Source: Eledone cirrhosa
Taxonomy: Eukaryota
Length of the DNA stretch: 64,000 bases
Direction of reading: 5' to 3'
NCBI GenBank assembly: GCA_964016885.1
Contig: OZ024743.1
Location: 364,622,001-364,686,000 of the forward strand
Below are positions 201-22,243 of this stretch, in pieces. The number at the start of each line of letters is the position of its first letter. Position 1 is the first letter of the stretch. A model generated the notes under the pieces. The model searched no databases. It saw only the letters and a program-made list of their open reading frames with translations, and was not told where the DNA came from. A program made the position numbers and the translations under genes.

Positions 201-3200
201 TATATTTTTCTATTAGTTTTGCTTGGAGAATGGAACTAACCCCACAGCTTTTGTCCTTCATCCCCAAGACAAACGTAGACTGGTCTTCAAGGTAAGATTC
301 ACCCAATTGTTCTTCATAAATAATTACATACACACACATATATATGTATGTTTGTTTGTGTGTGTCCCTGCCTGTGTCAGTGTTTATGTCCCGTAACTTA
401 ATGGTTCAACAAAAAAGATATCAATAAAATAAGTACCACACTTGAAAATCGCTAGCAGCTCGTCTTACTGAGGTGATGCCCGTAAGGGTGCCTAGTTGTT
501 TCAGTGCCTTAGCATCGCCATCACCCGTGGTAATGATGCGAGCGTATTGCCTCACCTCAGTGTTTAGTTAACCTTTGTGATGTGATGTGCGGCCGACTGT
601 CGCACTTGGTGGTAAATTGATGATTGTTTTAGCTCCCCACTTTTTTCTCTTTTATGCGTTTATATTTATAAGTATCGGTAGAGGGTCGGACGCCATGCTT
701 TGCAGCATTGAATTACGGCCCTTTATGATCCGAGTTTAAATCCCGGGCACTACAACGCTATTCAGTCGTGAAAGCAGCCGATGAAAGTAGGCGAAGTTGA
801 CGTCATTCGCCATCGTTTATTTCCGTATTACTACCACGCGTAAGTGGAGTTTTCACGCGTTTTTTATTTTTTTTATTAAAGCATATCGATGTAAGTGGAG
901 TTACTTAAATGAAAATATAGGTGGCCCTTAAAAGTAGTTTATATATATGTTGTAAGGTGTTAGTGCCCAACGGCTGAGCGACAAACTCAAGGGCTGACCC
1001 GGGTGATAAACTAGCTACCTCATTGCCTCCCCTCAAAACTATTTTTCTTACCTAGAGAGGAGGATCTTTTATATATATTGTAAAGGAAATCGTGTTATAT
1101 TCATGCTTGCTTAAAAGCTACTGGCTCTCTGTACTGTGAGTTCCAATTTCGATTGATTGGTGGAACTGTGATAGTATCAGACGAGATGCTTTGCGGTGTT
1201 TATAAGGCTCTGTGCGTTTTGAGTTCAAATCCCGCTGTAGCTTAACACAGCTACCTGTCCATTGAGACTGGAGCAATGTCCACATTGTTGCAGGCATCTT
1301 TGGTTTGAGGATACTTTCTCAATTCCCTTCGTTTCACTATTCTACGAGACCTCGAAAAGAGCATGAGCCTACCTGTCCTCTCTGAATAAACAAACAAACA
1401 AAATACAAAACAAAAATAACAACCCTGGAATTGAAACAGTCTGGAATTTGTCTCTGATTATAGTGAAAGTTGACTTACCATTAAAAAATATCTTAGCTTA
1501 TTAGAATATATTCAGATAATTCAAACCTATTTCTGTAATAAATCCTTCGAATGACCGTATCTATGACACACAATGGAGGTGAAATTTGAACTTTCATTAT
1601 AAAGAAAAAAAAAGTAATAATAATAATTTAAAATTATCTGCAGTAATCTCCCTTGATTTTAAGGCCATAACTCTCAACCTCGTTTTCGTTCTTTCTTCCG
1701 GTAGCAAGCACAAGGTAAAGTTCGTTATTAATTTCTCTTCTGGTAAATCGTGTTTAATCTTATTAATAAATAGAAAAATTTTAGGTAAGAAACAATTTAA
1801 TAGCAAGATAAGTTAGTCGTAAGTAATATCTGCTGGGTTGTTTTTTCATATAGCTTTCTGTTTTAGTTATTTTTCGATCGACAACGTGATGTCTGAATCA
1901 CCTATAAAATGTTGATACGTAAAATTCCCGATTGAAAATATTTAAAAATGAAATTTATCTGACTTTGTATATATAATAACGCTTATTCTTGATTTGTGTG
2001 GCTAATTTTGCAAGTATTAACTGAAATTTCAGTGCATTTATCGAATTTACGAATACTTTTTCTCAATGTATCCGATTCTAAATTACATGATCTTTTGGGA
2101 TGAACTAAATCAACTTTAACACGTTATGTATTTCCTTTTACTATTTATTCAATGTTATTACTTTAAAACAGAAACATCGCTACTATTGAATTCCTGTATA
2201 TATGTTTGAACCTACTACACATTCTATACATCTTCCTTACATCGTTCTCAATATTGTTTATCGTCTATAGCTGTAAGTATGTTCGTGTATCATATCCATA
2301 TTTCAAAGCAACTCTTAAAATGCCAATCCCTTCTAAACAAGAGCCAGCAACATGAATATCCCTCGTATTCTGTGAAGGAGGAAAATATTTTCTCTTCGCT
2401 TTTATACGGGCGATCGACAAGTATCTTAAATATGATCATTTGGTATCCGGTAAGGCTACACTTATACCAAGGTAGAAATGATCCTCTTCTGAGTATTGAT
2501 GGGCATCAATACGAGAAGCGATAGTTGAGCAGGTGTTGGTCCACTCCTCGGGCATTAACGTTGGAAAAAAGTTACCAAATTCGAATAAAATAATTTAAAG
2601 TGAAATTTAACTGACTTTGTATATATAATAACGCTCCATGTTGAAAAAGGTTTTTCAATAAGATCCTAACGGACGGGATGACGGGAATATTTTTGACCAT
2701 ACATTTAAAATTAGGTCTGATCTGGGAGATTGCCAGCAACGCATCATTACGATCATAAAAAAAAAACAACTACTATAGTTACTCGCCCTGATAAATCGCG
2801 GGCAATTTCTCATAAACCATATCTTGTCTTAAAGGGCAGACTACATTGAATAAACAGTAGATATGGTTACAACTGGAACTCGTTCCGTTTTAGTTATTCT
2901 TATTAGCTACCTATATATAAAATGTATTAGTTTAAAGATAATAAATAAAAAGGACATAACGATAGCCGTTATACTGAATAGTTTAATTAAAACATTGAGG
3001 AATCCTTGAGAATAGATATCGAAAAATATCTCGTTTGATTCGTCGTGGACGTGATATTCATTTTTTAAATTTCAGTATTTATTGTCAATGCTACCTCAAA
3101 CATTTTTACTTTTGAAAGTATGTTCCCATGGCTAATAGCTAAAATTGCACATTCCTTATAACTACATTAGATTTTGCTCAGTCATTGCCGGAAGGGTCTC

Positions 3201-3345
3201 TCTCATGTCGTTTTCTAGGTCCTCCAAGACAAGTTTATCCTGAAAAGTCTGGCCAAAGCGCATGGATGGTGTTTCTTTTTTTAATGTAGTGGGCTTCCAT
3301 ACTTTATTATCAAAATTCGCTCGTTTTTTACCATGTTAATCCCGT

Positions 3346-3363
3346 CTCTTCCTCCATCATTCT
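3346..3363 (+). promoter_or_regulatory. RPS15A: Putative TCT/5'-TOP transcription start and short non-coding exon 1 of RPS15A
   Basis: Pyrimidine tract tCTCTTCCTCC at 3345-3355 fits the YC+1TYTYY TCT initiator typical of ribosomal protein genes. It is followed by a GTAAGA donor at 3364 and a TTTTGCAG acceptor ending at 3571, 8 nt before the ATG. An ETS-like CCGGAAG lies at 3188-3194. Confidence 0.55.
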
Positions 3364-3579
3364 GTAAGAGTTGTCCCCGTTGTTTAGTTAAACAAATGCG
3401 ATTTATATTTTGAAAAAAGAAAGAAAAAAACATTCACTGTATATCGATCGGCTAAGGATGACAGGATCTCAATACTTTGTAATATTTGCGACAGTTTTGT
3501 TGTCTAGGTTCCCTCTAGTAAGATTGTTAGTTCTCTTTTATAAGATGCTTAATGTTTACATTATTTTGCAGCTCCCAAA

Positions 3580-3712
3580 ATGGTGCGTATGAACGTATTA
3601 TCCGATTCGTTGAGTACTATTCAAGCAGCTGAGATGGGTGGTAAAAGACAGGTGATGATCAGACCAAATTCTAAAGTCACATGCAGGTTTCTCTCTGTCA
3701 TGATGAAGCATG
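3580..3712 (+). CDS. RPS15A: 40S ribosomal protein S15a (uS8), coding exon 1
   Basis: Translates [45 protein letters not shown], the recognisable uS8 N-terminus. 133 nt, followed by a GT donor at 3713. Confidence 0.96.
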
Positions 3713-5059
3713 GTAGGTACATTTTTGCTTTTTTACACATCATCCTACCACTGTCCTTCACACTCCACCATCATATCAATGTTTTCTCTTTCACATTCAT
3801 CAATACTTGTGTGTTTCAACACACTTCTAGAACTGATTTTGTAAAATAAAGGAAAGACAACTTGGCATTCTGATAAACGCACAGGCAATTGCACAGAGGT
3901 AAAATAAGGTAGGACTATTTGGTGACTGAAGACAAAATGCACTCAATGTACTGTAGTTTGGTGTTAGAGAGGGCCTCCAGCTATATCATACCAAAAATAG
4001 TGAGATGCAGTCTCAAGCCATCTAGGTAGGCAATAACTCAACTGACCATGGGAAGTTGACATAAAATAATATTTTGCTTGGTTTTATCTCTGATTGACAC
4101 CAGAAGTCTTTTTTTTTATTCTTGTATACATAATACCAGACTAGATTAAGGAAAATTTATATCCAGCACCTAGAAATGAAGTAAATAGTTTGAATATCTA
4201 TAATCTTATTGACAAATCAGTCATCTTAGATATTCAATCAGTGGTGAGTTAAACTGCTGGTTTAACTGGAAACTATACATATTGGATAAATGATGACTTG
4301 GAAAAATGCTTGACCTGCTTGAAATGACAGCCAAATGTTACTGCTAATTGTGTAGGACATGTAATAGTGTAAATAATTTGCTGTATAGAGAAATATTTCT
4401 AAATATTATAGATTACATCCATGAGGGATGAATTAAGATTCCTTTTGTTATCAGTTCACATAATCCTTTCATATTCTGGCAAGACACTAATTTGAAAATA
4501 AAGAATTTAGAGAGACTTGGTAATATAATTTTTGCATAATCAAACTTGTAGAAATAGTTTTGTACCTTCAGGCATTCTCTATCAAGGAATTTCATTAATC
4601 TAGATCCAGGTGCAAAAGCTAAACTTATTCAAAATAGGTGCCCCATTAATTTCACATGAAAAACAAAAGTAGTGCAGTTTGCAGATGATATAAAATCTAT
4701 ACATAATATGAAGGGAAGTCCCATAATACCTAAACTATTTCCATTATTAGATGTATTATGTTGTAACTTTGTTATATATCACTTTGTGCAGTTTCATATT
4801 GCACTTCTTGGGTCTGTCTTAAGTACGTAGATGTATTCCAAATTGGTTCATTGTGGGTAGAAATCGATTTCTTTTGAATTTTTTTTCAAAAGAAATCGAT
4901 TCTTAGGCTTTGGCCATGCTGGAGCACTGCCAATGAAAAAATATATTTTTGTTTAAGTGCTGATCACAAGATATCTTGCAAAATATTTGGTTTTAAATGG
5001 CAATATATAATTATGATTTCACCCAAATAAATGTTCTTTTTTTATACTTGTCATTTTAG

Positions 5060-5139
5060 GATACATTGGAGAATTTGAAATAGTTGATGATCACCGAAAT
5101 GGCAAGATAGTTGTCAACCTTAATGGCAGGCTAAATGAG
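5060..5139 (+). CDS. RPS15A: 40S ribosomal protein S15a, coding exon 2
   Basis: AG acceptor at 5058-5059; encodes (G)[26 protein letters not shown]; GT donor at 5140; phase matches exon 1. Confidence 0.96.
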
Positions 5140-5188
5140 GTAATATTTTTTTTTTCAATAAAGTGACTTATTTGGCTCATTAATAATT

Positions 5189-5284
5189 TCATCCTTGTGT
5201 ACGACTGACCTCTACAAAATGGGTCATTTAAGAAGGGCTGGATGATATATGAAGTATTCTGAAATTGTGATTTTTGTTTTTTAA
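5189..5284 (+). pseudogene. Truncated H/ACA snoRNA copy 1 (5' hairpin and box H present; 3' hairpin broken at a TTAA)
   Basis: TCATCC...GGATGA stem, same TGTGTA/AAGGGC pocket as the other copies, box H ATATGA. Similarity ends at ttttTTAA. Confidence 0.65.
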
Positions 5285-5900
5285 CTTGTCCGGCGAAAAT
5301 TGCATTGTGCCATGTCAAAGCACAGAAAAAGACTACATGGTGCACATGAATAGAGTGAATCATGCAGAGCAGTTGAGAGCCAGCTACTGCATTGGAAGGA
5401 AGTAAAATAGGACTCTATTGTATCACATTGTTCCTTCGTTTTGCTGAGGTAATGGTTTTTTGGCAGTCTTTCCCATTTTTTTTGTTTGTTTCAATTGCCA
5501 GCATATTGAACAAATGCCTATTAAATATTTTGAAAGAAAAAAAAATCTCGTTCTTTCTTTTAACAATCCAAAATATTTATTGGTCTAAGATTTCCTCTGA
5601 ATGTATCAACATTGACATGTCAGATTCTGATATTAAGCAATATCTGATAAATTCTGTTCTTTTTCAATAAAAGAATCTTATTTCTTTTGTACTTCAACTC
5701 TTCAACTCAATCAGTTTCAGTAAAGCCTTCGAGAAAAAATTTCATTTTCATTTCTTGATGCCATATTTGTTGATATGAATTATTATTGAAACATGTCGCT
5801 CTCTCAAAAGGCAGCAATTAATTGCAAAGTACCCTTATATTCAAACATTATTTATAAAACAACCTAATTGGTTTAAACTCCCTCAGACCACAGCAGTAGT
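5285..5900 (-). mobile_element. Degenerate piggyBac-like fragment (boundaries approximate)
   Basis: 5484-5600 matches 11940-12050, which lies in a piggyBac transposase remnant. It begins right after a TTAA that cuts snoRNA copy 1. Confidence 0.45.
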
Positions 5901-6215
5901 GGTTCGATTATAAATGTGAAATGTAAACAAATGACTAATGATAATGATGTGCTTTGACTTTCATTGACATTTTTTTTGTCACTGCAAGTGTTGTAGTTAA
6001 AGGCAAGGGATTAAAAAAAAATAATACAATTTTACCTAGAGAAGGTAGCTTTGTGCAACATGGTATTTGGAAGGGTTTCTAGCCATAGAAACAATATACA
6101 CTTAATTCACTTTACTAAAATTTTTATTCAGAGAACTTGATAATCAGAAATGGTAAAATATTTGTCAACCTTACTTGGAATCTAAAATGGGAATATTTTG
6201 CTTATTATATATTAT

Positions 6216-6347
6216 GTGCATCCTTGTGTACGGCTGGCCTCTACAAAATGGGTCATTCAGGAAGGGCCGGATGCTATATAAATTAAATATTCTAAAATTA
6301 TTGTGATGGTTTGTTTTTAAATCAATCACTTAGATGTTTATACATTT
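6216..6347 (+). ncRNA. Intronic box H/ACA snoRNA copy 2 (predicted guide for the 18S site equivalent to human Psi1692)
   Basis: Hairpin GCATCC/GGATGC with inner TGGCC/GGTCA stem; box H ATATAA 14 nt after the pocket; second hairpin; ACA+3 nt at 6342-6347; 132 nt. Confidence 0.8.
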
Positions 6348-7113
6348 TTGTTGTTGAATATAGTCAATTCTATATTGTGGAAACAACTTGGTCATCAGTA
6401 AATCTCCCTAGTTTGTGATGCACTAAAGTTACAAATGCTATATAAGCTGTAATGATTTATCAGAAAATATGTAAAAAAACAAGGTTTAATTCAAATATAG
6501 TATATTTACTAATGGTCAGATTGTGAACATTTGCAATATTAGAGTAAAGCGTTTGTTATTCTTTCTGATTTCTTTTTATAATTATCCCTTGTTACCATAT
6601 TTTTAATGAAAGGCACTGATTTTCAAATAATTTGAAAATCAATCATTTGGAGGGATTTATTAATATATGTTTAGTAATCAATCATTTGGAGGGATTTAGT
6701 AATATATGTTTCATTAGGCTTGAGCTTGTAGCACAAATTAACTGTTAACATCCTAAATATCTAAAAAATGAGCTACTTAATTCAAATATTTATTGTATCT
6801 TTACTTGTGGAGAGGTTGTGAAAATTAGTGGTAAGCTAAAGACTTTAATGTGAGGCAGTTATAGTACTGTATTGTATTTTTCAAGAATGTCTTGCGAAAG
6901 GAGTTTGATACAGTAAATGAATTTACATATTGATTCAAATAAACTATTATTTAAAATTGAGAACCTATTTTTTTATGTAGCTTTGTTTGTAAACTATTGC
7001 CTATTGCCAAAATTTATATTTATATACTTTGTTGTTATTTTAAAAAGAATATAATTTTGCATAGAGATGGAAAGGCATAGAAACCATATCATGTATGTGA
7101 TTAACTTTATTAA

Positions 7114-7319
7114 CCCATTAGCATTTACATTACTCTATATTTACTATTGTATTTTCACGGTAAACAATTTATCTCAGATAATATTGAATCTGAGATTTTG
7201 ATATTATTTATTTTGAGAACAATATCTTAACATAACTATGAGTGGTTGGTTATGGCTAGTTTGAACAGAAAGAGGTGAGAGAATTCTTGCCAGATATGGC
7301 CAGTTTAAATGCTAAAGGG
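7114..7319. mobile_element. piggyBac-family MITE
   Basis: TTAA-CCCATTAGCATTT...AAATGCTAAAGGG-TTAA. The paralogous unit near 13957 shows the empty TTAA site. Confidence 0.9.
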
Positions 7320-7441
7320 TTAAAATTAAATTTTATCTTTTGAACTATATCGGAGAACTTAATCAGAAATGGTAAAATATTTGCCAACCTTACTGGGAAT
7401 TTAAAATGGGAATATTTTGCTTATCGTATACTATATGTTAA

Positions 7442-7574
7442 GTGCATCCTTGTGTACGGCTGACCTCTATAAAATGGGTCATTCAGGAAGGGCCGGATGC
7501 TATATAAATTAAATATTCTAAAATTGTTGTGGTGGTTTTGTTTTTAAATCAACCACTTAGATATTCAAACATGA
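7442..7574 (+). ncRNA. Intronic box H/ACA snoRNA copy 3
   Basis: Same architecture. Compensatory change in the 3' hairpin (GTGAT/ATCAC to GTGGT/ACCAC). Ends ~66 nt upstream of the 3' splice site. Confidence 0.82.
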
Positions 7575-7640
7575 TATTTCTGTTAATTATAATCAACAGT
7601 TTTATATTCAGTGTTTAATTGAATTTTGTCTCTCTTACAG

Positions 7641-7726
7641 TGTGGAGTCATTAGCCCTCGTTTTGACGTATGCCTTCGTGATTTGGAGAAATGGACCAAC
7701 GTCTTACTACCATCTCGACAGTTTGG
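7641..7726 (+). CDS. RPS15A: 40S ribosomal protein S15a, coding exon 3
   Basis: TTACAG acceptor; encodes [28 protein letters not shown](G); GTAAGC donor at 7727. Confidence 0.96.
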
Positions 7727-7848
7727 GTAAGCAAACACTTCCAACATTCTGGTTAATTTAACCCTTTAGCATTTAAAACGGCCGTATCCGGCCAGAACTA
7801 TCTCTGTTCAAACTGGCTGTAACTGGCTGCTCATACCTACATTATTAA

Positions 7849-10377
7849 CCCATTAGTGTTCAAACCGGCCGAAATTATTTCCCTTTCATTTGTTCAAACT
7901 GCTCGAAACCGGCTGATAACACCCACACTAAAATATCGTTCTAAAAATAAACAATACTGTCATCAAAATCTCAATTCGAGATTACTACGAGATTAGGCCC
8001 TTACCGAGAAAATTAACACTTAATATAGTGAAACAACTTAAAACAACACGTTTTTTTAATGTTGAAAGTAGAACAGATTTTTTTTGTGTATCAAACATGG
8101 CCTGTGAAAGTAACGATACCGATTTTGAAGGTTTTACACACGACGACATTCAGAATGAACAAGAAACAAAAGATATTAGTGATTTATCTTCAAATGAATC
8201 TGATTATATTTCTCAAATTTCATTGTTGTTTTGAAAGTGAAAATGAAGATCTCCAGGATGCCATTGAAAATATTACAGCAACGTGGTTGAAAAATACCAT
8301 ACCAATATATGTTCCTGATTTTATTCAAAATACTGGTCCACAACACACATTAGCTCCCGATGCTAAAGTACTGGATTATTTCCTTTTGTTTTTACCACAA
8401 ATTTCCTTCGAAGTTGAGGCAGAGGAGAGTAATCGATATGCCCAACAACAGATTTCAAATCGAGGAAAACCTGGTCTGTTTGGCAACCAACCGATGCTGC
8501 GGAAATGCAAGCATTTTTTACCATAAATATTATGTTCGGTATAAAACAATTTCGAAGACTGTGGAATTACTGGAGCTCTGATATAAAGTTTAGTGATCCT
8601 TATATATCAAGTTTTATGCTGAAAACAACGTATTTAAAATTAAACCATATTGATACTTCAAATGCCCCTATTAATTAATTTCACCTGCCCATAAAAGTCA
8701 AATTTAACCTGAAAAAATCAGGTAAAATTATATAATTGTAAATTTTTGATATTTAACCCTTTAGCATTCAAAGCGACAAAAACCGACAAGATTATGTCCC
8801 CTTTCATTTATTCAAACCGACAAAAACCGACATTTAATACCACACGGAGATTTCCTTCTAAAAATAAACATTGACATCATCGAAATCTCGTCAATTCGAG
8901 ATTACTGCGAGATAAAGCCCTTACGCGCGAAAATTAACTCTTAGTATAGTTAAAGAACTTGCGATAACACGTGTTTTTAACGTTGAAAGTGTAACATGGC
9001 TTCCGAAAGTAGCGACAACGAATTTGAAGGTTTTACGTCCGACGACATTCGAGATCAAAAAGAAACAGAAGATAATATCAGTGATTTATCTTCAAACGAA
9101 TCAGATATATTTATTTCTGATATATCTGATAATGATGATAGTTACTTTGAAAGTGAAAGAGAAGATTTGACTGACACCATTGAAAAAATAGCAATGTGGT
9201 TGAAAGAAACAACATCGATACATGTTTCGGATTTTACTGAAAATATTGGACCACAACACACATTACCACCCGATGCTAAAGCACTGGATTATTATTTTTT
9301 ATTTTTACCACAATCTTTCTTCGAAGTTGTGGCAAATCGCTATGCACAACAACAAATTTCTAATATCGGAAAACCCGATCTGTTATGTTGTCCGACAGAT
9401 TCTGCCGAAATGAAAGCGTTTTTTACCATAAATATTATGTTTGGTATTAAACAATTTCCACGACTGTGGAATTATTGGAGTACTGATATAAGGTTTGGTG
9501 ACCCTTATATATCTAGTATTATGGCAAAAACGAGATTCATTAAATTAAACCAGTATTTGCATCTGGTTGATACTTCAAATGCCCCTGGTAGAAATGAATC
9601 AAATTACGACCCACTGTACAAAGTACGACCATTAATTGAAATATTGTCAGAAAAATTTAAAAGTGTGTATAAACTTATATATTGGGAACTTTCTATTACG
9701 TAATTTTACACCGTACATTTACAGAGTACATTGCCAATATTATTTTGACTGGTGAAAAGGTTTTATACATTTTTTTCAATGAAAATATTTGCCTGGAATG
9801 TAGAGAAAGACTAAAACCGTGTACTGATTACACCTGCATTTTTAATTAATTCACCTGTTCAGAAAACTGCTAGAATTGATGGAAATCAGCATCTAGGTCA
9901 TTATTGGATTTTTTTGCAACAAATCTAACAGATAAGGCAGATAAAGTTTAAATTTTTGTGTTTATCCATAAAGTTATTACTTTTACACCTGTTAATTAAT
10001 TTCACCTGCCCATAAAAGTCAAATTTAACAAAAAAAATCAGGTAAAAATATATAATTGTAAATTATAGTTATTTAAACATCTACTGACAAAATTTCAAGT
10101 CTGCACATAGAAAATTAAAGTAATTACAAACAAATAAAATTGATAACCCTCTTGAGTATAATTAAGTGAAAATAATGCGAATAGATGAACATGACATTTG
10201 ACAATTCAATGTGAATGCTAAAGGGTTAAACATCTACTGACAAAATTTCAAGCCTGCACATAGAAAATTAAGAAAATTACAAACAAATAAAATTGATAAC
10301 CCTCTTGAGTATGATTAACTCAAAATAATGTGAACAGATAAGCATGACATTTGAAAATTAATGCAAATGCTAAAGGG
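7849..10377 (+). mobile_element. Older internally deleted piggyBac element (transposase N-terminal remnant)
   Basis: TTAA-CCCATTAG...GCTAAAGGG-TTAA. Frameshifted ORFs 8028-8581 are homologous to the 8996-9703 ORF. Confidence 0.85.
8757..10225 (+). mobile_element. Young non-autonomous piggyBac element, truncated transposase ORF 8996-9703
   Basis: 14-bp TIR CCCTTTAGCATTCA/TGAATGCTAAAGGG with TTAA TSD. The ORF has an acidic N-terminus and piggyBac motifs (EMKAFF..GI, YWST, M.KTRF, DPLYKVRPLI) but stops before the DDD core. Confidence 0.92.
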
Positions 10378-10899
10378 TTAAAGTATTGTTATCAAAATCT
10401 CGTATATTCGATATTGTGAAATAATTATGTAAGATAAAACCTTTACTGTGAAAATACAATAGTAAATATAGAATAATGTAAATGTTAAAGGGTTAAACAC
10501 AAATCTATTTGTAATATAAAGTTTTCTAATTTCTTCAATATAAAAAAGATTGATGTCTTTTGTTTTTTTTGTTGAAATGTTTTAGTAGTCATATATGATT
10601 ATTTCTATTAGTATTTGACACTACCTCCCTGCGTGAAATAGTGAGAATCAAGTTTTTTAACATGACCATACCAAAATTGCTCTAAGTTTATAAATTAAGA
10701 TAAAAGCATGGCATTTTCAATGAAGATTCCAAACTGAATTTTTTAAAGGATATTGCAAAAAATATCATATTTACAGATTATTAAATAAAATAAACAATTT
10801 ACTATAAAATGTAAGCAAAATCAGGAAAAAAGATTTTCTGTATCAACATACATTTGAGGGCTTGAAACAGTTAATACAGAGATCTGTATGGCTCCCAGT

Positions 10900-12100
10900 C
10901 TGTTTTTGTTGGTTCCCTTTCAATATTTTGTTTGGAACACCTTGAACCTAAGGAATTTTTTCCAAAGGCATTTTCCTTTTATAAGAATAGTTACAAATAA
11001 GTTGATGGACCAGGTTCATTTTGAAACTCAAATGGGTACACTTTCCCCCCCCCCCCTTGCCTTTTCTAAACAGGTTATGGTTTGGGGATTCTCTTAATAA
11101 AACAAATACTTCCACCATTTATTTGACTTCCTTCTAATGCAGCAGCTGGCTCTCACCTGGTCTGCATGGTCCACTCCTTTTATGTATTCTGTGGAGCTTT
11201 TCACTGGACACTTGTAAAATCATTGGGACTGGAATTTGTGGCCAGCAGTGCCACAGTCCTTATATGTGAGGCTGTTGCCTTCAGGTTTCCTTTCTATTGT
11301 ATCACTTTGTTCCTTCATTTTGCCAAAGTAACAACTTTTGGCATGTCTTTTCTATTTTTTCTTATTGTACCACGAGCATAGGTCCCATTTTTAAAAATGT
11401 TTCTGAAAGAGTGATAGCAAAAATTATCACAATACACGATTTTTCCCCCCTCTTGTCCTTTGTGAGGTCCTTCACAACTCTTTATCAAAGTCCTTGTTCC
11501 ATTTGATTTGGGACTTTCCCTGTATAAACTTAGAAGTCATTTATATAGCCGTTGTGTGGATCATCCCACAGTTATGCAACACTTTGTGGTGTTCAGTGGA
11601 AGATATTGTTTGAAGACAAGCAACAATGCCTACATCAATTGAACTGTACTGTAACTTAAAGTTCCAACGCATCATTTCAATAAATGGCTGAACATTGGCA
11701 AGTTTGTCATGGTCGGGGTGGCCATGTGCTGGATTCTGGGTAACATCTAAAATATGGAAATACTGGTTCAGTTTGTCCAGTCTGTTTCTTGTAATCAATT
11801 CCCTGATCCCTGTCAATTGGAATAAATTCTTTTAAAAAATGCATTTCCTGATTAGGGACTGAAACAACTTCCATCTGAAATGCATTTCTGTAGCAGTTGT
11901 TTTGCTATATCTGATCAGAGCCTTTTGTTTCAGTGTATTTGTTTGTTTCGATTGCCAGCATATTGAACAAATCTTTATTAAATATTTTAAAGAAAAAAAT
12001 CTAGTTCTTAGCAATCCAAAATATTTACTGGTCCAGGATTTCCTCTAAAGAAAATTGTTTGCTCCATTCCAATGTAGGTTCACTGTCATCTTCATTTTCA
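10900..12100 (-). mobile_element. Degenerate piggyBac transposase remnant of a second family (boundaries approximate)
   Basis: Minus ORF 11541-11816 GIRELITRNRLDKLNQYFHILD...DKLANVQPFIEMM resembles the piggyBac MSRNRF..I...LHF..DKL.KVRP motif. Confidence 0.65.
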
Positions 12101-12103
12101 CAT

Positions 12104-12431
12104 TCTATATAATACTAAAAGTCTGTTTGCTTGCTTGTCTAATGTAATACAGCCAAAAGAGCTCATAATGGGAAAATACTTTGAAAGGAAGTTGACCCTG
12201 AAATGGGAATACAAATGGAATAAAACAAGTTTCGTGTAAATCGAAGCACGGGTTCCCGATATATGGGTTTTTTCTGGGTACCTTCATAAACAGAAAGAGA
12301 TGGTGGTTGTGAGAGAGTAGATTGAAAGAGAGACAGAAGGAAAATGGAAGAGATTTGGTGGTGTTTTGTGTGTATGTATATATATATATATGAGTGTGTA
12401 TATGTGTCTATGACCAGTGTACATAGACCAG

Positions 12432-12504
<73 letters not shown>

Positions 12505-12824
12505 TGTCTATTTTAATTATATAAAAATTATTTTTAAGTGAACGTGACCCAATGGGTCACAGGGGGTCTAGTTTACTACTAAAACTCTGTGATTGTGTGC
12601 TTGTCTGTAATTTAATACAGCCAAAATGGCGCATAATGAGAAAATACTTTGAAAGGAAGTTGCCCCTGAAATGGTAATACAAATGGAATAAAACAAGTTT
12701 CGCATAAATTAGAGCATGGGTTTTTCTGGGTACCTTCATAAATAGGGAGAGAAAGAGACTGGTTGAAAGAGAGAGAGCTGTAAAAAAAATATTTTTAAGT
12801 GAACATGACCTAACGGGTCACTAG
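12104..12824 (+). mobile_element. Two tandem non-autonomous Helitron-like elements (12104-12571, 12572-12824)
   Basis: 5' TC start; 3' hairpin GTGACCCA-A-TGGGTCAC followed by CTAG-T; internal (CA)/(TA) microsatellites. A related copy lies at 41771-42392. Confidence 0.7.
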
Positions 12825-13028
12825 TAGTCCAGATTTCTATAAAAGAAGCATATTTCTTTTCTGCTTCAAATAAATCTTGTAAAATGGTATTTGGAAGGGT
12901 TTCTAGCCATTACACTTAATTCACTTTATTAAAATTTTATTCAGAGAACTTGATAATCAGAAATGGTAAAATATTTGTCAACCTTACTTGGAATCTAAAA
13001 TGGGAATATTTTGCTTATTATATATTAA

Positions 13029-13160
13029 GTGCATCCTTGTGTACGGCTAGCCTCTACAAAATGGGTCATTCAGGAAGGGCCGGATGCTATATAAATTAAA
13101 TATTCTAAAATTATTGTGATGGTTTGTTTTTAAATCAATCACTTAGATGTTTATACATTT
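13029..13160 (+). ncRNA. Intronic box H/ACA snoRNA copy 4
   Basis: Near-identical to copy 2; H and ACA boxes intact. Confidence 0.75.
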
Positions 13161-14202
13161 TTTTTGTTGAATATAGTCAATTCTATATTGTAAAAATAAC
13201 TTGGTCATCAGTAAATCTCTCTAGTTTGTGATGCACTAAAGTTACAAATGCTATATAAGCTGTAATGATTTATCAGAAAATATGTAAAAAAACAAGGTTT
13301 AATTCAAATATAGAATATTTACTAATGGTCAGATTGTGAACATTTGCAATATTAGAGTAAAGCCTTTGTTATTCTTTCTGATTTCTTTTTATAATTATCC
13401 CTTGTTACCATATTTTTAATGAAAGGCACTGTATGATTTTCAAATAATTTGAAAATCAATCATTTGGAGGGATTTATTAATATATGTTTAGTAATCAATC
13501 ATTTGGAGGGATTTAGTAATATATGTTTCATGAGGCTTGAGTTTGTAGCACAAATTAACTGTTAGCATCCTAAATATCTAAAAAATGAGCTAGTTAATTC
13601 AAATATTTATTGTATCTTTACTTGTGGAGAGGTTGTGAAAATTAGTGGTAAGCTAAAGACTTTAATGCGAGGCAGTTATAGTACTGTATTGTATTTTTCA
13701 AGAATGTCTTGCGAAAGGAGTTTGATACAGTAAATGAATTTACATATTGATTCAAATAAACTATTTAAAATTGAGAACCTATTTTTTTATGTAGCTTTGT
13801 TTGTAAACTATTGGCTATTGCCAAAATTTATATTTATATACTTTATTTTAAAAAGAATAAAATTTTGCATAGTGATATCAGTTTTTGTGCAAAATGGTTG
13901 GTATTTGGAAGGGCATCTAAGCCATAGAAACCATATCATGCATGTGATCAACTTCATTAAAATTAAATTTTGTCTTTTGAACTATAATTGGAGAACTTTG
14001 TAATCAGAAATGGTAAAATATTTGTCAACCTAGCTGGGAATCTAAAATGGGAATACAGTAGAACCTCACAGTACAAGTGCCGCATTGTACGAGTAATTTT
14101 ACTGTACGACCTGAGCTGGAACTGATTTATATTTTAATTAATTTCAATAGGGAAAATTTATTTTTAAATCGTAAAACGAGCTTGGCCAATGGAACAAGTT
14201 AA

Positions 14203-15670
14203 CCCTTTAGCATTCAAAGCGACAAAAACCGACAAGATTATGTCCCCTTTCATTTATTCAAACCGACAAAAACCGACATTTAATACCACACAGAGATTTC
14301 CTTCTAAAAATAAACATTGACATCATCGAAATCTCGTCAATTCGAGATTACTGCGAGATAAAGCCCTTACGCGCGAAAATTAACTCTTAGTATAGTTAAA
14401 GAACTTGCGATAACACGTGTTTTTAACGTTGAAAGTGTAACATGGCTTCCGAAAGTAGCGACAACGAATTTGAAGGTTTTACGTCGGACGACATTCGAGA
14501 TCAAAAAGAAACAGAAGATAATATCAGTGATTTATCTTCAAACGAATCAGATATATTTATTTCTGATATATCTGATAATGATGATAGTTACTTTGAAAGT
14601 GAAAGAGAAGATTTGACTGACACCATTGAAAAAATAGCAACGTGGTTGAAAGAAACAACATCGATACATGTTTCGGATTTTACTGAAAATATTGGACCAC
14701 AACACACATTACCACCCGATGCTAAAGCACTGGATTATTATTTTTTATTTTTACCACAATCTTTCTTCGAAGTTGTGGCAAATCGCTATGCACAACAACA
14801 AATTTCTAATATCGGAAAACCCGATCTGTTATGTTCTCCGACAGATTCTGCCGAAATGAAAGCGTTTTTTACCATAAATATTATGTTTGGTATTAAACAA
14901 TTTCCATGACTGTGGAATTATTGGAGTACTGATATAAGGTTTGGTGACCCTTATATATCTAGTATTATGGCAAAAACGAGATTCATTAAATTAAACCAGT
15001 ATTTGCATCTGGTTGATACTTCAAATGCCCCTGGTAGAAATGAATCAAATTACGACCCACTGTACAAAGTACGACCATTAATTGAAATATTGTCAGAAAA
15101 ATTTAAAAGTGTGTATAAACTTATATATCGGGAACTTTCTATTACGTAATTTTACACCGTACATTTACAGAGTACATTGCCAATATTATTTTGACCGGTG
15201 AAAAGGTTTTATACATTTTTTTCAATGAAAATATTTGCCTGGAATGTAGAGAAAGACTAAAACCGTGTACTGATTACACCTGCATTTTTAATTAATTCAC
15301 CTGTTCAGAAAACTGCTAGAATTGATGGAAATCAGCATCTAGGTCATTATTGGATTTTTTTGCAACAAATCTAACAGATAAGGCAGATAAAGTTTAAATT
15401 TTTGTGTTTATCCATAAAGTTATTACTTTTACACCTGTTAATTAATTTCACCTGCCCATAAAAGTCAAATTTAACAAAAAAATCAGGTAAAAATATATAA
15501 TTGTAAATTATAGTTATTTAAACATCTACTGACAAAATTTCAAGTCTGCACATAGAAAATTAAAGTAATTACAAACAAATAAAATTGATAACCCTCTTGA
15601 GTATAATTAAGTGAAAATAATGCGAATAGATGAACATGACATTTGACAATTCAATGTGAATGCTAAAGGG
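14203..15670 (+). mobile_element. Second copy of the young non-autonomous piggyBac element
   Basis: Nearly identical to 8757-10225 but with a CGA>TGA stop at 14907. TTAA TSD; empty site at 20806-20809. Confidence 0.92.
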
Positions 15671-15737
15671 TTAAACTCGTACTCCGAGGTATCACTATTG
15701 AAAAAAAAAAATGTAGTCTTATTTTGCTTATATGTAT

Positions 15738-15869
15738 GTGCATCCTTGTGTACGGCTGACCTCTACAAAATGGGTCATTCAGGAAGGGCCGGATGCTATA
15801 TAAATTAAATATTCTAAAATTTTTGTGATGGTTTATTTTTAAATCAGTCACTGAGATATTTATACATTT
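15738..15869 (+). ncRNA. Intronic box H/ACA snoRNA copy 5
   Basis: Same two-hairpin fold, box H ATATAA, terminal ACAttt. Confidence 0.75.
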
Positions 15870-16194
15870 TTTTTTTGTTGAATATAGTCAATTCTATATT
15901 GTGGAAACAACTTGGTCATCAGTAAATCTCTCTAGTTTGTGATGCACTAAAGTTACAAATGCTATATAAGCTGTAATGATTTATCAGAAAATATGTAAAA
16001 AAACAAGGTTTAATTCAAATATAGAATATTTACTAATGGTCAGATTGTGAACATTTGCAATATTAGAGTAAAGCCTTTGTTATTCTTTCTGATTTCTTTT
16101 TATAATTATCCCTTGTTACCATATTTTTAATGAAAGGCACTGTATGATTTTCAAATAATTTGAAAATCAATCATTTGGAGGGATTTATTAATAT

Positions 16195-19100
16195 CATCAT
16201 CATCATCATCATCACCGTTTTACGTCCGTTCTTCCACGCTAGCATGGGTTAGACGGGTTGTCCTGTTGTGGGCAGTGTCTGGTCGGCTGACCATGCCTTG
16301 CTCATACAGGAACTGATCTGGCTTGATTTCTACAGCTGGATGCCCTTCCTAACACCAACCTCATTTACAGTGAGTGCTGGGTGCTTTTTCGTGGCGCCTA
16401 CACGTCCACTTTACAGTGTGGGCTGGGTGCTTTTTTGCCGTGGCACCTCCACGACCACCTTGCGGTGGGGGGGGGGGGGGCATATTTATATGCTTCAGCA
16501 TGTACCCATGGGAGGTCGGGTACCCTGTATTACTGCGTGACGCCAGAAGTCACGGTCGTGTGTCATTGACTTTGAGAGGTGTAGTTGGGTAAGGTCGGCT
16601 TTTATCACCTCATCCCAAGTCATCTTGGGTCTCCCCACTCCGCGGTTTCCATCAACTTCTAGTGCTCTGCACCTTTTTATGCAGCTGTCATCCTTCATAC
16701 GCATCACATGTCCATACCAGCGTAACCGCCTCTCCTGCACGCAGCATTTGATTCCTCTTATGCTCAGTCTCTCTCTCAATTCCTTTATGCTTTGTCGTTC
16801 ACGTATATTACTGTTACACATCCATCGGAGCATGCAGGCTTCGTTTCTCTCTAATCTACGTAAGTCTTCCACCTTCACCGCCCAGGTCTCACTACCATGC
16901 AACATCGCTGTTCGGATACACGCATCATACAGTCTGCCTTTCATTCTGAGGGAGAAGCCTTTTGCAGCTAGCAGTGGTAGTAGTTCCCTAAACTTCTTCC
17001 ATCCCGTTCTTACCCTAGTTATTGTACTTTCTGAGCACCCACCTCCGCTGCTAATTCGGTCACCTAGGTAGCAGAAGCTGTCTACTGTTTCTACAGGGCC
17101 CTCCCAGAGATTGGTGGTACTTGTTTCCTGTGGCTGTTTGCTTGCTGTTTCAGCACAGCTGCTGCATGTGAATCCTACATTCTTAATTAAGCTTCCTGAG
17201 ATAACGCTACATCTCTTGTGTACCCATTGTTTGCATTTGGGGCAGAGAATGGAGTTCCTACCTACACCTTTCCTACATACTGAGCAAGGCCATTTCCCTG
17301 AGGGGATCTGGGTTCTGTTTTCTCGTCTACTTATAAGGACCTTAGTCTTTGTCATGTTGACTTTGAGGCCCTTTCTCTCTAGTCCCTGCTTCCAGGTTTG
17401 GAATTTATTCTCTAGTTCTACCATAGATTCAGCTATGAGTGCGAGGTCATGGGCATCCGGTCTTAAACTCCTCCGTTATTGCCTGCAGGACTATGATGAA
17501 CAGGAGAGGGCTAAGAACAGAGCCCTGGTGGACCCCAACCTGTACGCTAAATTCCTCGCTATACTCATTGCCAATCCTAACTTTGCTGACTGCTCCCCTA
17601 TACATGGCTTGTACCGCTTTCACAAGCCATTCATCTACTCCTAGTTTTCTAAGAGCCCACCAGATTACTGCACGTGGAACTCTGTCAAAGGCTTTCTCAA
17701 GGTCGACAAATGCCAAGTAGAGTGGCTTACTTTTAGCTAGGTACTTTTCCTGTAATTGCCTCACAAGGAAGAGGGCATCAGTGGTGCCTTTCCCTGGTAC
17801 AAACCCAAATTGCATCTCGTCTATATTCACCCGGTCCCTAATCAGCTGTGCTATAACTCTTTCTGTTACTTTCATGACCTGGTCCATCAACTTTATACCT
17901 CTATAGTTTCCTCTATCTAGTGCATCGCCTTTACCTTTGTAGCAGTTGACAATGATGCTACTGCACCAATCTTTTGGTATGGCCCCCTCTAGTATTACCT
18001 GGTTAACGATACGTGTGGTTATAGTGTGACCTACAGACCCAGATGCCTTCAGCATCTCGGCAGCTATACCCGATGGACCGGTTGCCTTCCCTATCTTCAT
18101 ATCTCTGATTGCCTTACTTACTACGCTGCCGCTGACTTGTACTGCTGGTCCCTCTATAGGGTCTACGTGGGGTAGGGTCTCTTCTTCCCATGCATTCTCC
18201 TCATTTAGTAATCTATCATAATGACTCTTCCATGCATCTTTCTTCTCAGCACTTGTGAGGGCAAGCTCACCTTTATCATTCCGGATACACTTCTCTCCAA
18301 TGACATCACAACTATCTCTGACACACTGCCTCGCAATCTTGAATACCTCCTGTTTCTGGTCCTCATGTTGTAAAACATGCTTGAATTTTCTATCCTCTGC
18401 TTCCCTCCTAGCTAAGTATACTTGTCGCCTAGCTTCCCTCTTGGTCTCTATGTAATGTACCCTGCTCCCCCCGTTCTTCCATTCTTTCCATGCCTGTCTC
18501 TTGGCCTTGACTGCTTCATCTACCTTATTGTTCCACCACCAAGTCACTCTCCTCCTGCTTGAGGTCTTACTCCAGCCACAAACCTCATCCGTCGCCTCTA
18601 GTAAGTTATTTTTTAGGAACTCCCAGTTCTCTTCTACGTTAAATGTCTCTATCTGTTCTTCTTTACTGTCGTAGGCGTTGAGTAAAATATCTTTACATCT
18701 GTTACTGGTTGAGGGGACTTTCAGCTTCCAGATCTTTCTTCTCCAGGTTGGCCTCTGTTTCAGGGCTCGTCTAGTTCTGACCGTGAGGTCGCTGACAACT
18801 AAGCTATGTTGGGATGTACATTCCTCACTAGGGAAGGCTTTTGTGTTTACGACCGTCCATCTGTCACGTCCTCTGATGAGGATAAAATCTAACTGACTAG
18901 AGTGCTCCCCTGATCTATAGGTGATCAGGTGGTTGTCGGGTTTTTTAAAGTTTGTGTTACATATCGACATGTCATTGGCGTCGCAGAATTCTAGAAGTCT
19001 GAATCCTTCCTCATTCCTTGTGCCAACTCCATGGCCTCCATGTACTCTATTGAAGCCGTCGCAGTGTTTACCTACGTGTCCGTTAAAATCTCCTGCAATG

Positions 19101-20087
19101 ATTAGGAAGTCCTTGTCGTCTGTTAGAGCAGTAGTGTGTATTAGGGACTCGTAAAACCTATCCTTAAGTTCGTCTGGCAGCCCCGATTGGGGTGCGTAAG
19201 CTGATATTATTGTGGTAATTGTCTTATTCAGGACTAGTCTGAGTTTAATGATTCTTGCATTTACCCTGTACACTGAGATTACTTTATCTACCCACTTGTC
19301 AGCTAATAGTATACCTACACCACCCATCCCATCGTCATTTCCCACCCAGAAAAATTTGTAGCACTGGCTTTTTCCTACAAGGACTCTAGCAGACCCTCCT
19401 CTCCATCTAGTCTCTTGCACACAGCATACATCAACTTCATTTCGCTCTAGCATTTCTACGATTTCTCCTGCTCTTCCTTTCATTGAGCCTACATTGATGG
19501 TACCAACTCGGAGTTTTGGGCATTTGTCGACACTCGTAGGGGAGGGTCTCTGGGTTGGCGCTTCACGTGGGTGCTTGGTAGCTCGCAGATTCATATTTCA
19601 TCTATTGATTCAGAGTTGCTCGTGTATTCCCAGCTCATCCATCCATAACGGTGGGAAAATTGAGGGCTAGAAGAACAGTGGTGGTGGGGTAATGGCAGGG
19701 TGTGTTGGGATGCGCCAGAGGAGGAGAGAGTTAGTTAGGCAGGTAGTAGCAGCAGCAGTGGAAATGGCATGCTAGGTTTGATTGGTCGAATAGACTATGG
19801 TGGTGTGTGGGGGTGGGGGGGAGGGAAATTGTGAGGTAGGAACTGAGGGTCGCATGGTAAATATCCAAGTTAATACTACATCAGTAAAATTAACAATAAT
19901 AACGTCATGAAAAAACTACTAAGAGAAACCCTCGAAAATTTATCGCTAATACAGCAGGGAAAATTTAACGCTAATACAGCAGGGAAAATTTATCGCTAAT
20001 ACAGCAGGGAAAATTTAACGCTAATACAGCAGGGAACATCATAATATTAACGACAATATGTAGGCTAAAATACCTTCGTAGATTAGG
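16195..20087 (-). mobile_element. Near full-length RTE-clade LINE (APE endonuclease + reverse transcriptase), frameshifted
   Basis: ORF 19594-17447 has APE motifs (GTINVGS, VQETRW, GDFNGH, QLDFIL) and RT motifs (YRGIKL, DLEKAFD, GVHQGSVLSP); it continues in 17424-16495. (GAT)n 3' tail; 7-bp TSD TTAATAT at 16188-16194 and 20088-20094. Confidence 0.95.
19934..20035. repeat. ~26-bp minisatellite x4 in the RTE 5' UTR
   Basis: Unit GAAAATTTA(T/A)CGCTAATACAGCAGG repeated four times. Confidence 0.9.
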
Positions 20088-20666
20088 TTAATATATGTTT
20101 AGTAATCAATCATTTGGAGGGATTTAGTAATATATGTTTCATGAGGCTTGAGTTTGTAGCACAAATTAACTGTTAACATTCTAAATATCTAAAAAATGAG
20201 CTAGTTAATTCAAATATTTATTGTATCTTTACTTGTGGAGAGGTTGTGAAAATTAGTGGTAAGCTAAAGACTTTAATGCGAGGCAGTTATAGTACTGTAT
20301 TGTATTTTTCAAGAATGTCTTGCGAAAGGAGTTTGATACAGTAAATGAATTTACATATTGATTCAAATAAACTATTTAAAATTGAGAACCTATTTTTTTA
20401 TGTAGCTTTGTTTGTAAACTATTGGCTATTGCCAAAATTTATATTTATATACTTTATTTTAAAAAGAATAAAATTTTGCATAGTGATATCAGTTTTTGTG
20501 CAAAATGGTTGGTATTTGGAAGGGCATCTAAGCCTTAGAAACCATATCATGCATGTGATCAACTTCATTAAAATTAAATTTTGTCTTTTGAACTATAATT
20601 GGAGAACTTTGTAATCAGAAATGGTAAAATATTTGTCAACCTAGCTGGGAATCTAAAATGGGAATA

Positions 20667-20832
20667 CAGTAGAACCTCACAGTACAAGTGCCGCATTGTA
20701 CGAGTAATTTTACTGTACGACCTGAGCTGGAACCGATTTATATTTTAATTAATTTCAATAGGGAAAATTTTTAAATCGTAAAACGAGCTTGGCCAATGGA
20801 ACAAGTTAAACTCGTACTCCGAGGTATCACTA
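20667..20832. mobile_element. Tc1/mariner-type MITE (second copy at 14057-15697 interrupted by piggyBac)
   Basis: TA-CAGTAGAACCTCACAGTAC...GTACTCCGAGGTATCACTA imperfect TIRs; absent from the 7410 copy of the unit. Confidence 0.6.
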
Positions 20833-20871
20833 TTGAAAAAAAAAATCTAGTCTTATTTTGCTTATATGTAT

Positions 20872-21003
20872 GTGCATCCTTGTGTACGGCTGACCTCTAC
20901 AAAATGGGTCATTCAGGAAGGGCCGGATGCTATATAAATTAAATATTCTAAAATTTTTGTGATGGTTTATTTTTAAATCAGTCACTGAGATATTTATACA
21001 TTT
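20872..21003 (+). ncRNA. Intronic box H/ACA snoRNA copy 6
   Basis: Identical-looking to copy 5; lies in the last intron before the final exon. Confidence 0.75.
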
Positions 21004-21186
21004 TTTTTTTTGTTGAATATAATCAATTCTATATTGTGGAAACAACTTGGTCATCAGTAAATCTCTCTAGTTTGTGATGCACTAAAGTTACAAATGCTAT
21101 ATTATTGATAATAGACCGGCATAGACTGATTTAATATAGTCAATTGAGAAATATTTTTATTTTATAATACCCATGGTCTTTTTCAG

Positions 21187-21280
21187 GCGTTTGGTACTAA
21201 CCACTTCAGGAGGGATCCTTGATCATGAAGAAGCAAGGAGAAGACATCTTGGAGGCAAAATTTTAGGATATTTCTTTTAA
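21187..21280 (+). CDS. RPS15A: 40S ribosomal protein S15a, final coding exon
   Basis: TTTCAG acceptor; encodes RLVLTTSGGILDHEEARRRHLGGKILGYFF then TAA. The four exons sum to 393 nt = 130 aa + stop, the canonical length. Confidence 0.96.
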
Positions 21281-21281
21281 C

Positions 21282-21287
21282 AATAAA
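21282..21287 (+). terminator. Polyadenylation signal of RPS15A
   Basis: AATAAA 1 nt after the stop codon, with T-rich sequence downstream. Confidence 0.7.
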
Positions 21288-22243
21288 TGTAATTCTCCAT
21301 GAATATTTTTTGGATTTGATTTTTTTCATCTATTGGAAAAAAAAAAGAAGATAATTTAGCTTAACCCTTTAGTGTAGTGTTGAAATCGCCCGTAATTATT
21401 TCCCCTTCATTTGTTCAAACACCCACACTAAAAAATCGTTATAAAAATAAACAAACCATCATCAAAATCTCGTCAATTCGAGACTGCTGCGAGATTAGGC
21501 CTTTACCGCGAAAATTAACACTTAATATAGTGGAACAACTTAAAACAAGTGCTTTTTTAACTTTGAAAGTGCAACAAATTTTTTTTTGTATCAACATGGC
21601 TTATGAAAGTAGCAATGCCGAGTTTGAAGTTTTTACACACGACGACATTCAGAATAAACAAGAAACAAACGATAATATTAGTGATTTTTCTTCAAATGAA
21701 TCTGATGTTTATATTTCTAAAATTTTGTTCAGCGGTGATTATTTTGAAAGTGAAAACGGAGACTCCAGAGCGCCATTGAAGATATTTCAGCAACATGGTT
21801 GAAAAATACCACACTAATATATGTTCCCGATTTTATTCAAATTACTGATCCACAACACATGTTAACTCCCGATGCTAAAGCACTGGATTATTTCTTTTTG
21901 TTTTTACCACAAACTCTTTTCGAAGTTGTAGCAGAAGAGATTAATCGATATGCCCAACAACAGATTTCAAATCAAGGAAAACCCAATCTGTTTGATGATG
22001 CTGCAGAAACGCGAGCATTTTTTTTACCATAAATATTATTATATTCGGTATAAAACAATTTCCAAGACTGTGGAATTACTGGAACTCTGATGATATAAGG
22101 TTTAGTGATTCTTATATATCAAGTATTATGCTGAAAACAACGTATTTAAAATTAAACCAGTATTTGCACCTGGTTGATACTTCATTAATTTCACCTGCCC
22201 ATAAAAGTCAAATTTGACTAAAAACATCAGGTAAAATTATATA

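Follow-up and report, generated by a model that had tools for sequence, protein, structure and literature searches.

Are the six related sequences in the introns of this octopod RPS15A gene box H/ACA snoRNAs, which nucleotide would they guide, and by what route did they become six? In the window, by which we mean the whole 64-kb stretch of DNA analysed, blastn placed all six copies on the + strand, sense to RPS15A (Table 1; copy 1 starts at 5187 or 5189), with copies 1-3 within intron 5140-7640 and copies 4-6 within intron 7727-21186. This agrees with the original prediction of a six-copy array with three copies per intron, but only five copies are intact and these are distributed 2+3, not 3+3. 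As a whole, we consider the best explanation, at a probability of about 0.85, to be an intronic H/ACA guide for the equivalent of human 18S U1692 together with the duplication history set out below.

The array and its host gene

The host is RPS15A (uS8), with an intact frame of 130 aa over four coding exons, AG acceptors at the exon borders and GT donors after the first three of the four. Its protein is identical to the Argonauta protein at 120 of 130 residues, which speaks against a divergent RPS15A paralogue as the host, and no second named octopod RPS15A cluster was found among the best 120 of 4419 matches; the 44-aa first exon taken alone gave no Pfam family. Copy 1 starts 48 nt past the exon donor, copy 3 ends about 67 nt upstream of exon 7641-7726, to which a contig of run X3 (7464-7783) joins it, and copy 6 ends about 184 nt upstream of the last exon.

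The hairpin-H-hairpin-ACA architecture is present in copies 2-6, which are 132-133 nt long. Box H (ANANNA) occurs in all six copies and starts 14 nt past the first base of the 3' pocket strand, while the ACA occurs in five of the six and is followed by three bases up to the predicted 3' end. Copy 1 is truncated, as had been predicted, its 3' hairpin having been lost to a repeat, and it is a probable pseudogene; loss of snoRNAs by transposon insertion has been described (PMC6984369). A descriptor match that would have made copy 1 a complete H/ACA RNA by way of an ACA at 5322 was rejected since this ACA belongs to repeat-derived sequence and on folding forms part of a stem. When the window was searched with a covariance model derived from the six copies, these scored 83-165 bits (a match by construction) and no further copy was found, the next hit reaching 20.5 bits. 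Copies 2, 3, 4 and the identical pair 5/6 can be told apart by copy-specific bases.

The proposed pairing was occupied in 96.3% of 164 cells, against 27.7-47.0% when slid, and all changes at paired sites in the 5' hairpin of copy 1 preserve pairing. Both compensatory changes noted earlier (GCATCC/GGATGC vs TCATCC/GGATGA and GTGAT/ATCAC vs GTGGT/ACCAC) are real double changes, in columns 3/59 in copy 1 and 91/112 in copy 3; covariation is not significant alone, since two double changes among five distinct rows were reached by 30 of 500 shuffles. Folding of the 5' hairpins is no more stable than that of shuffled sequences (z -0.97 to +0.6), and in the minimum-energy structures the pocket is closed or misplaced rather than open.

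Table 1. Positions of the snoRNA copies, host exons, decayed exon copies and transposons in the window.
Feature	Positions	Strand	Remarks
Copy 1	5187..5290	+	5' guide hairpin and box H intact; repeat replaces 3' hairpin from about 5290
Copy 2	6216..6347	+	intact H/ACA; pocket 6225-6230 and 6262-6267, box H 6276, ACA 6342
Copy 3	7442..7574	+	intact; box H 7502, ACA 7569
Copy 4	13029..13160	+	architecture intact, ACA 13155; one upper-stem pair of guide hairpin broken
Copy 5	15738..15869	+	intact; ACA 15864
Copy 6	20872..21003	+	intact, identical to copy 5; ACA 20998
RPS15A first coding exon	3580..3712	+	91% to Argonauta hians S15a-like over 44 aa; spliced contigs in runs X1, X2, X6
RPS15A second coding exon (the co-duplicated exon)	5060..5139	+	exon joints seen in contigs
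RPS15A third coding exon	7641..7726	+	joints in contigs
RPS15A last coding exon, with stop	21187..21280	+	frame
Decayed exon copy before copy 2	6135..6195	+	2-nt deletion, donor lost
Decayed exon copy before copy 3	7340..7415	+	
Decayed exon copy before copy 4	12948..13008	+	in 1019-bp, 95.7% duplicate of 6054-7068
Decayed exon copy of copy 5	13985..14055	+	separated from copy 5 by roughly 190-bp insertion holding piggyBac-like element
Decayed exon copy of copy 6	20596..20666	+	
piggyBac-like element	14199..15676	+	TTAA target duplication; 99.5% twin at 8753-10231; empty site near 20805
LINE (endonuclease and reverse transcriptase)	16195..20087	-	inserted in spacer between copies 5 and 6

The guide pocket and its predicted target in 18S rRNA

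Both pocket hexamers are invariant in the six copies, and the 5' pocket forms 6+6 Watson-Crick pairs around a single 18S U, 14 nt from box H, the spacing being the rule quoted in PMC2150573; the pocket originally described is confirmed in every copy. The target scan was made on the 3' 912 nt of the 18S of another eukaryote (L001), where the runner-up among 244 U positions reached 8 pairs without mismatch, or 9 with one mismatch. The selected U lies directly 5' of the bridging-oligo sequence used for human Psi1692 (PMC9610020) and is the equivalent of that site, as predicted; it is most likely the uridine that the RNA marks. The description of the site as belonging to the decoding region has to be amended since Psi1692 is placed on helix 28 at the neck-head junction of the 40S subunit rather than in the decoding site proper (PMC10227372).

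Chance gives 0.07 occurrences of the pocket plus box H per shuffled window, a figure of modest weight as the six copies represent one origin. When the full H/ACA descriptor was combined with a 6+6 pocket matching, without mismatch, one of the 245 U of the 18S fragment, 20 matches arose in 1534 gene shuffles, and none when it was limited to the U1692-equivalent site. For the 3' hairpin, a scan of the 3' half of the 18S found no site common to the copies; the best (13 pairs) was found for copies 5 and 6 only and has five G-U pairs on one side. Inspection of this AT-rich hairpin against the printed substrate found no guide for U1232, a site outside the L001 fragment. The 3' hairpin is probably structural. 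In copies 2-6 it has a 7-nt strand beginning 14 nt ahead of the ACA that might be a second guide.

By analogy with the known pathway, the RNA would be co-transcribed with RPS15A, freed from the spliced intron and bound by the dyskerin complex, and its 5' pocket would direct the conversion of the U1692 equivalent to pseudouridine in 18S rRNA.

Cross-species support comes from a single contig (185 nt, depth 4.9) of one run, X2 (organism B), which matches 6217-6305, the guide half, with 4 differences over 89 nt; the 67 and 29 bases on either side fail to align at 80%, and the coding exons of X2 differ at 30 of 300 positions. Comparison of the X2 snoRNA with these exons was not significant (p=0.13). 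Between copies 2 and 3 the guide hairpin shows 2 changes in 64 nt and the flanks 16 events over some 120 positions (p=0.035, in a test chosen after seeing the data), while the whole snoRNA against the flank (p=0.23) and the copy 1 hairpin against its pseudo-exon (p=0.10) gave no significant difference. In our reading selection acts on at least one copy, while the young additional ones are probably redundant passengers. Run X1 has a spliced RPS15A contig, but none of the pieces listed for this run falls on any copy. A contig of run X6 aligned from 6213 was considered as a mark of the snoRNA 5' end and rejected, as its coordinates show that the contig continues upstream.

Origin of the copies

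Five decayed copies of exon 5060-5139 precede copies 2-6, with scores of 47-58 where the 95th percentile is 30; none was found for the other exons. From this arrangement we infer that the copies arose by tandem duplication of a unit comprising the coding exon and the snoRNA. An ancestral short intron would have held one snoRNA just past exon 5060-5139, and tandem duplication of exon plus snoRNA would have followed. The first unit presumably kept its exon and later lost the 3' hairpin of its snoRNA (copy 1), whereas in the later units the snoRNA survived and the exon did not. A block of roughly 1 kb with a copy of the copy 2 type may then have reached the next intron and grown to three units, and this three-unit array would have taken up the piggyBac-like element and the LINE. 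Against this history counts that the block would have had to cross exon 7641-7726 and leave no copy behind: a decayed copy of that exon was sought and none found, and a duplicated unit that also held this exon was rejected for the same reason.

The spacers between units differ by 0.55-2.1%, and the units of copies 5 and 6 are 99.4% alike. Could the copy number itself have been selected for dosage, with all five intact copies active? These copies retain both boxes and the pocket, and the guide hairpins of copies 2 and 3 differ less than their flanks. However, spacers so similar mean that the copies have hardly had time to decay, the duplications also took in neutral flanks and dead exons, copy 1 is broken and copy 4 lacks a stem pair, so we regard such selection as unlikely. 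The youngest units are only 0.5-2% apart, and the number, which stems from recent segmental duplications carrying neutral flanks and decayed exons, need not be a selected amplification.

That there is no RNA gene here at all, only a chance match within a duplicated piece of intron or a dispersed repeat, or that the copies in intron 7727-21186 are an assembly artefact, we consider highly improbable. The region is rich in repeats, copies were counted within the 64-kb window, and the likeness of the copy 5 and 6 units is near allelic levels. Against this, the six copies are the only ones in the window, and X3 depth over the snoRNA bins is 11-20 vs >100,000 on the neighbouring repeat, which by these two measures disposes of a dispersed high-copy repeat, one of the outcomes that would have undone the original proposal. 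Conservation across species is limited to the hairpin, and the chance rate is low. Furthermore, filled and empty insertion sites differ between the units, and unit-specific variants appear in both X3 and X6, the latter with a contig of the copy 6 type; if X3 is the source sample, as it may be, it is not independent. Single X3 contigs carry exact variants of the copy 4-6 units at depths of 15.4 and 21.3 vs 7.4 over unique DNA, which would fit 2 and 3 copies, although depth itself gives no copy number.

As each intron has several copies kilobases apart, exonucleolytic trimming, if it acted by itself, would yield long RNAs with an H/ACA snoRNP cap at either end; these would be sno-lncRNAs of the SLERT type (PMC11028025) in an invertebrate. 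We think it quite unlikely that this occurs; the predicted products would be about 1.36 kb (copies 2-3) and about 8 kb (copies 4-6, enclosing the piggyBac-like element and the antisense LINE). If true, sno-lncRNAs would have been born from exon-plus-snoRNA duplications and would stabilise transposon sequence in the nucleus.

Relation to known guides

The Rfam comparison proposed as a check yielded no family for the array. At the gathering threshold the whole window gave no match, and an E-value scan of 3000-21500 gave 18 rows, mostly microsatellite, none on a copy. The SNORA70 model had no match in any Rfam scan, even at E up to 10. Among four narrow scans, that of copy 3 alone returned plant snoR135 (RF01431, H/ACA), in a full-length, in-register alignment over 7441-7571; its 15.4 bits (E=0.64) fall short of the gathering score, 45. 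Our model matched none of 80 metagenome RPS15A loci (80 kept of 137), mostly uninterrupted frames and uninformative for animal introns; 13 loose motif matches among them were not convincing. A literature search found no report of a cephalopod or RPS15A-hosted guide for the U1692-equivalent site.

Vertebrate SNORA70 (U70) is likewise a box H/ACA guide for 18S U1692 (PMC9610020; supplement of PMC6984369), about 135 nt long and in a ribosomal-protein intron, although it is listed as the guide for both U1232 and U1692 (supplement of PMC6984369) and its host from fishes to human is RPL10 (PMC1687206), not RPS15A. Its extra copies arose by retroposition, unlike the DNA-level tandem duplication proposed here. 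Its U1692 pocket probably lies in the 3' hairpin, as indirect hints suggest. The idea of a functional counterpart of SNORA70 with another host and a guide in the 5' hairpin stands. We judge it very unlikely that the RNA is a rearranged SNORA70 orthologue whose U1692 hairpin moved to the 5' position: the target is the same and shuffling of antisense elements between snoRNA families is described (PMC6984369), but the missing model match and a second hairpin in which inspection showed no U1232 guide count against it, and it is already largely excluded.

Drosophila snoH1 (snoRNA:Psi18S-1820), an intronic H/ACA RNA of about 140 nt, was proposed as the functional equivalent of U70, and its target site has been shown to be modified in Drosophila (PMC2150573, PMC12239590). 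It is present as one copy in the fourth intron of mfl/Nop60B (PMC2150573) and has been known since 1999. The snoH1 figure legend boxes the 3' ACA, suggesting a 3' pocket where ours is 5', and U1820 is called the first of three modified uridines in that paper while the pocket here selects the third.

The snoR135 consensus shares the 5' pocket strand and the 14-nt distance to box H with our copies, and the best fit of its pocket motifs is again to this 18S U (13 pairs with one mismatch vs 9 at the next site). This sub-threshold match argues against the guide being lineage-specific, as the original prediction had it. A deep homology, in which an old 5'-pocket guide was kept in plants and molluscs and replaced in vertebrates and flies, nevertheless seems unlikely to us: the score is far below the family threshold, the stems differ, and a common target forces common pocket letters so that convergence explains the likeness.

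The novelty first claimed was overstated because guides of this site already have varied hosts (RPL10, Nop60B) and intronic clusters of H/ACA RNAs are common in flies, where several copies per intron are a described pattern (PMC3089462). In chicken, cis-duplication within the host gene is the main route of snoRNA expansion (PMC2653536). What differs from known intronic clusters are the spacers of 1-5 kb with transposons and a duplicated unit that carried a coding exon, since decayed.

The guide is therefore an uncatalogued member of an ordinary gene class, and what is new is the co-duplication of exon and snoRNA. It fills an annotation gap, as no Rfam model finds the RPS15A-intron guide, and brings to three the host genes for guides of this conserved 18S pseudouridine, in keeping with the accepted mobility of snoRNAs; thinking on how H/ACA RNAs work is left unchanged. 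Most useful are the dead exon copies, a fossil record that reveals which unit was copied and that its exon and its snoRNA survived in separate units.

Six copies within the RPS15A introns

As predicted, six related copies lie sense to RPS15A, three in each of the introns following its second and third coding exons (see table). The four coding exons encode an intact 130-aa frame, and the first three are joined in spliced contigs from sequencing runs X1, X2 and X6. The protein is identical to that of Argonauta hians at 120/130 residues and to the seven other proteins compared at 101-108/130, which points to an octopod as the probable source of the window. For a conserved gene it is unusually changed (101-105/130 against three other molluscan proteins and one bird protein), and its changes near residues 8-21 are absent even from X1 and X2.

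Features of the window
Feature	Position	Strand or relation	Remark
Pyrimidine tract, then donor site	1691-1714		candidate first exon for RPS15A, non-coding and of 5' TOP type
RPS15A coding exons	3580-3712, 5060-5139, 7641-7726, 21187-21280	sense to copies	
Intron with copies 1-3	5140-7640		
Intron with copies 4-6	7727-21186		
High-copy short element	7110-7324		between copies 2 and 3
piggyBac-like remnants	7758-10382, 14199-15676, 21375-22243		
LINE	16195-20087	-	endonuclease and reverse transcriptase domains
LINE	29950-32589	+	endonuclease and reverse transcriptase domains
928-codon open frame	43548-46334	-	no Pfam match
48-bp tandem array	52201-63936	both (open frames)	about 239 copies, 94% matches

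The predicted snoRNA array is real and well formed. Both hexamers of the 5' pocket are kept in all six copies, and so is a box H that follows the first base of the 3' strand of the pocket by 14 nt, in agreement with the original prediction. Copies 2-6 are complete, with a second hairpin and ACA, and copy 1 is truncated, its match ending at about 5290 where a repeat starts. This break is real, since 3500-5399 is covered by a DNA contig that matches it at every position. The compensatory changes proposed earlier are present as two double changes, with pairing in 96.3% of 164 cells of the named structure, but 30 of 500 shuffles equal that. Folding energy supports an H/ACA structure weakly (whole-copy z = -0.28 to -1.46 for copies 2-6), that of the 5' hairpin being no better than shuffles.

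The best outside evidence for selection on the putative guide comes from X2, a run from another species whose coding exons differ from the window gene at 30/300 positions. One X2 contig matches 6217-6305 with 4 differences, and its flanks gave no alignment to the window at 80%. Within the window, copies 2 and 3 differ less in the guide hairpin than in its flanks (p=0.035, in a test picked post hoc); three other selection tests were non-significant (p=0.23, 0.13 and 0.10).

The predicted 18S target

Targets were sought in a eukaryotic 18S rRNA that is not the host species' own, using its 3'-terminal 912 nt, a 3' half carried by a contig of the viral collection (L001:1769-2680). The pocket forms 6+6 Watson-Crick pairs around one U of this fragment, where the next-best site offers 8 pairs. 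This U corresponds to the predicted site, human Psi1692: the bridging oligo for human Psi1692 in PMC9610020 begins one base after it. When the gene was shuffled 1534 times with any of 245 U positions allowed as target, the full descriptor arose 20 times for any U and never for the Psi1692-equivalent site. The 3' hairpin shows a one-sided bulge and has no target common to the copies within the 912-nt fragment. Eukaryotic 18S rRNA is also matched, at 88.9%, by NZ_CP050525.1, 1764 bp long and labelled an Acinetobacter plasmid but probably a contaminant contig.

Position, boxes, pocket and spacing are established, and we put at 0.85 the probability that the copies encode an H/ACA guide for this U. 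Dyskerin, Nop10, Nhp2 and Gar1 are the H/ACA-binding proteins. By the H/ACA pathway, the predicted snoRNA would be freed from the intron lariat, trimmed and bound by these four, and the target U would be isomerised. Because each intron holds more than one copy, the release of single snoRNAs would require either cuts between the copies or that each transcript yields just one of them; failing this, long RNAs with snoRNA ends would result (PMC11028025).

Relation to known guides

The Rfam comparison proposed with the original prediction assigned no family to any copy in scans of the window and in narrower scans of four copies. SNORA70 guides U1232 and U1692 (supplement of PMC6984369) and is hosted by RPL10 from fishes to human (PMC1687206); the predicted counterpart with a different host stands. 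PMC2150573 proposes Drosophila snoH1, in mfl/Nop60B, as the SNORA70 equivalent. Its target, U1820, is described there as the first in a set of three modified uridines, and its register may therefore differ from that of the octopod guide by up to two bases. The octopod RNA would thus act in the manner of SNORA70 and snoH1, but neither its model score nor its host makes it a member of the SNORA70 family. There is a weak alignment between copy 3 and plant snoR135, whose motifs in the 5' pocket suit this U as well, a resemblance that serves as a lead only. The literature covered, mostly outside subscription journals, yielded no cephalopod or RPS15A-hosted guide for the Psi1692 site.

Intronic clusters in Drosophila were reportedly described by Huang et al. 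in 2004. The three copies per intron are as predicted, but the contrast with a usual single copy does not hold generally, since Drosophila H/ACA loci are generally clustered within introns (PMC3089462). PMC2653536 gives cis-duplication as the usual source of snoRNA paralogues, and PMC4696412 describes guide redundancy as common.

Proposed duplication history of the array

Decayed copies of the second coding exon lie upstream of each of copies 2-6, and no decayed copies of any other RPS15A exon were found. Copy 1 starts 48 nt downstream of the true exon, and about 67 nt separate the end of copy 3 from the next exon. The simplest reading is a short ancestral intron with a single snoRNA, after which exon and snoRNA were duplicated together in tandem; the first unit then retained the exon and later ones the snoRNA.

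Several repeats lie in the window. The piggyBac-like stretches 8753-10231 and 14199-15676 are 99.5% alike, and hence were recently mobile or recently duplicated. In the minus-strand LINE the coding region is divided between two frames, and the target duplication is short. The short element between copies 2 and 3 is of very high copy number, its summed depth in X3 exceeding 100,000, and ends related to it occur at 7758-7800 and at other places. The 48-bp array contains open frames as long as about 1900 codons and may be a satellite or a repetitive coding exon.

Copy 4 lies within a 1019-bp duplicate of the copy 2 region (95.7%). Exact variants of the copy 4-6 units occur in X3 and X6 contigs. 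The depths of single contigs, 7.4, 15.4 and 21.3, would agree with copy numbers of one, two and three, although the tool warns that depth does not measure copy number and X3 is possibly the source sample. These units diverge by 0.55-0.93% and are broken by two insertions, a LINE and a piggyBac-like element that shows a TTAA duplication; for both, a sister unit retains the empty site. On this evidence the expansion of the array is recent and may be neutral.
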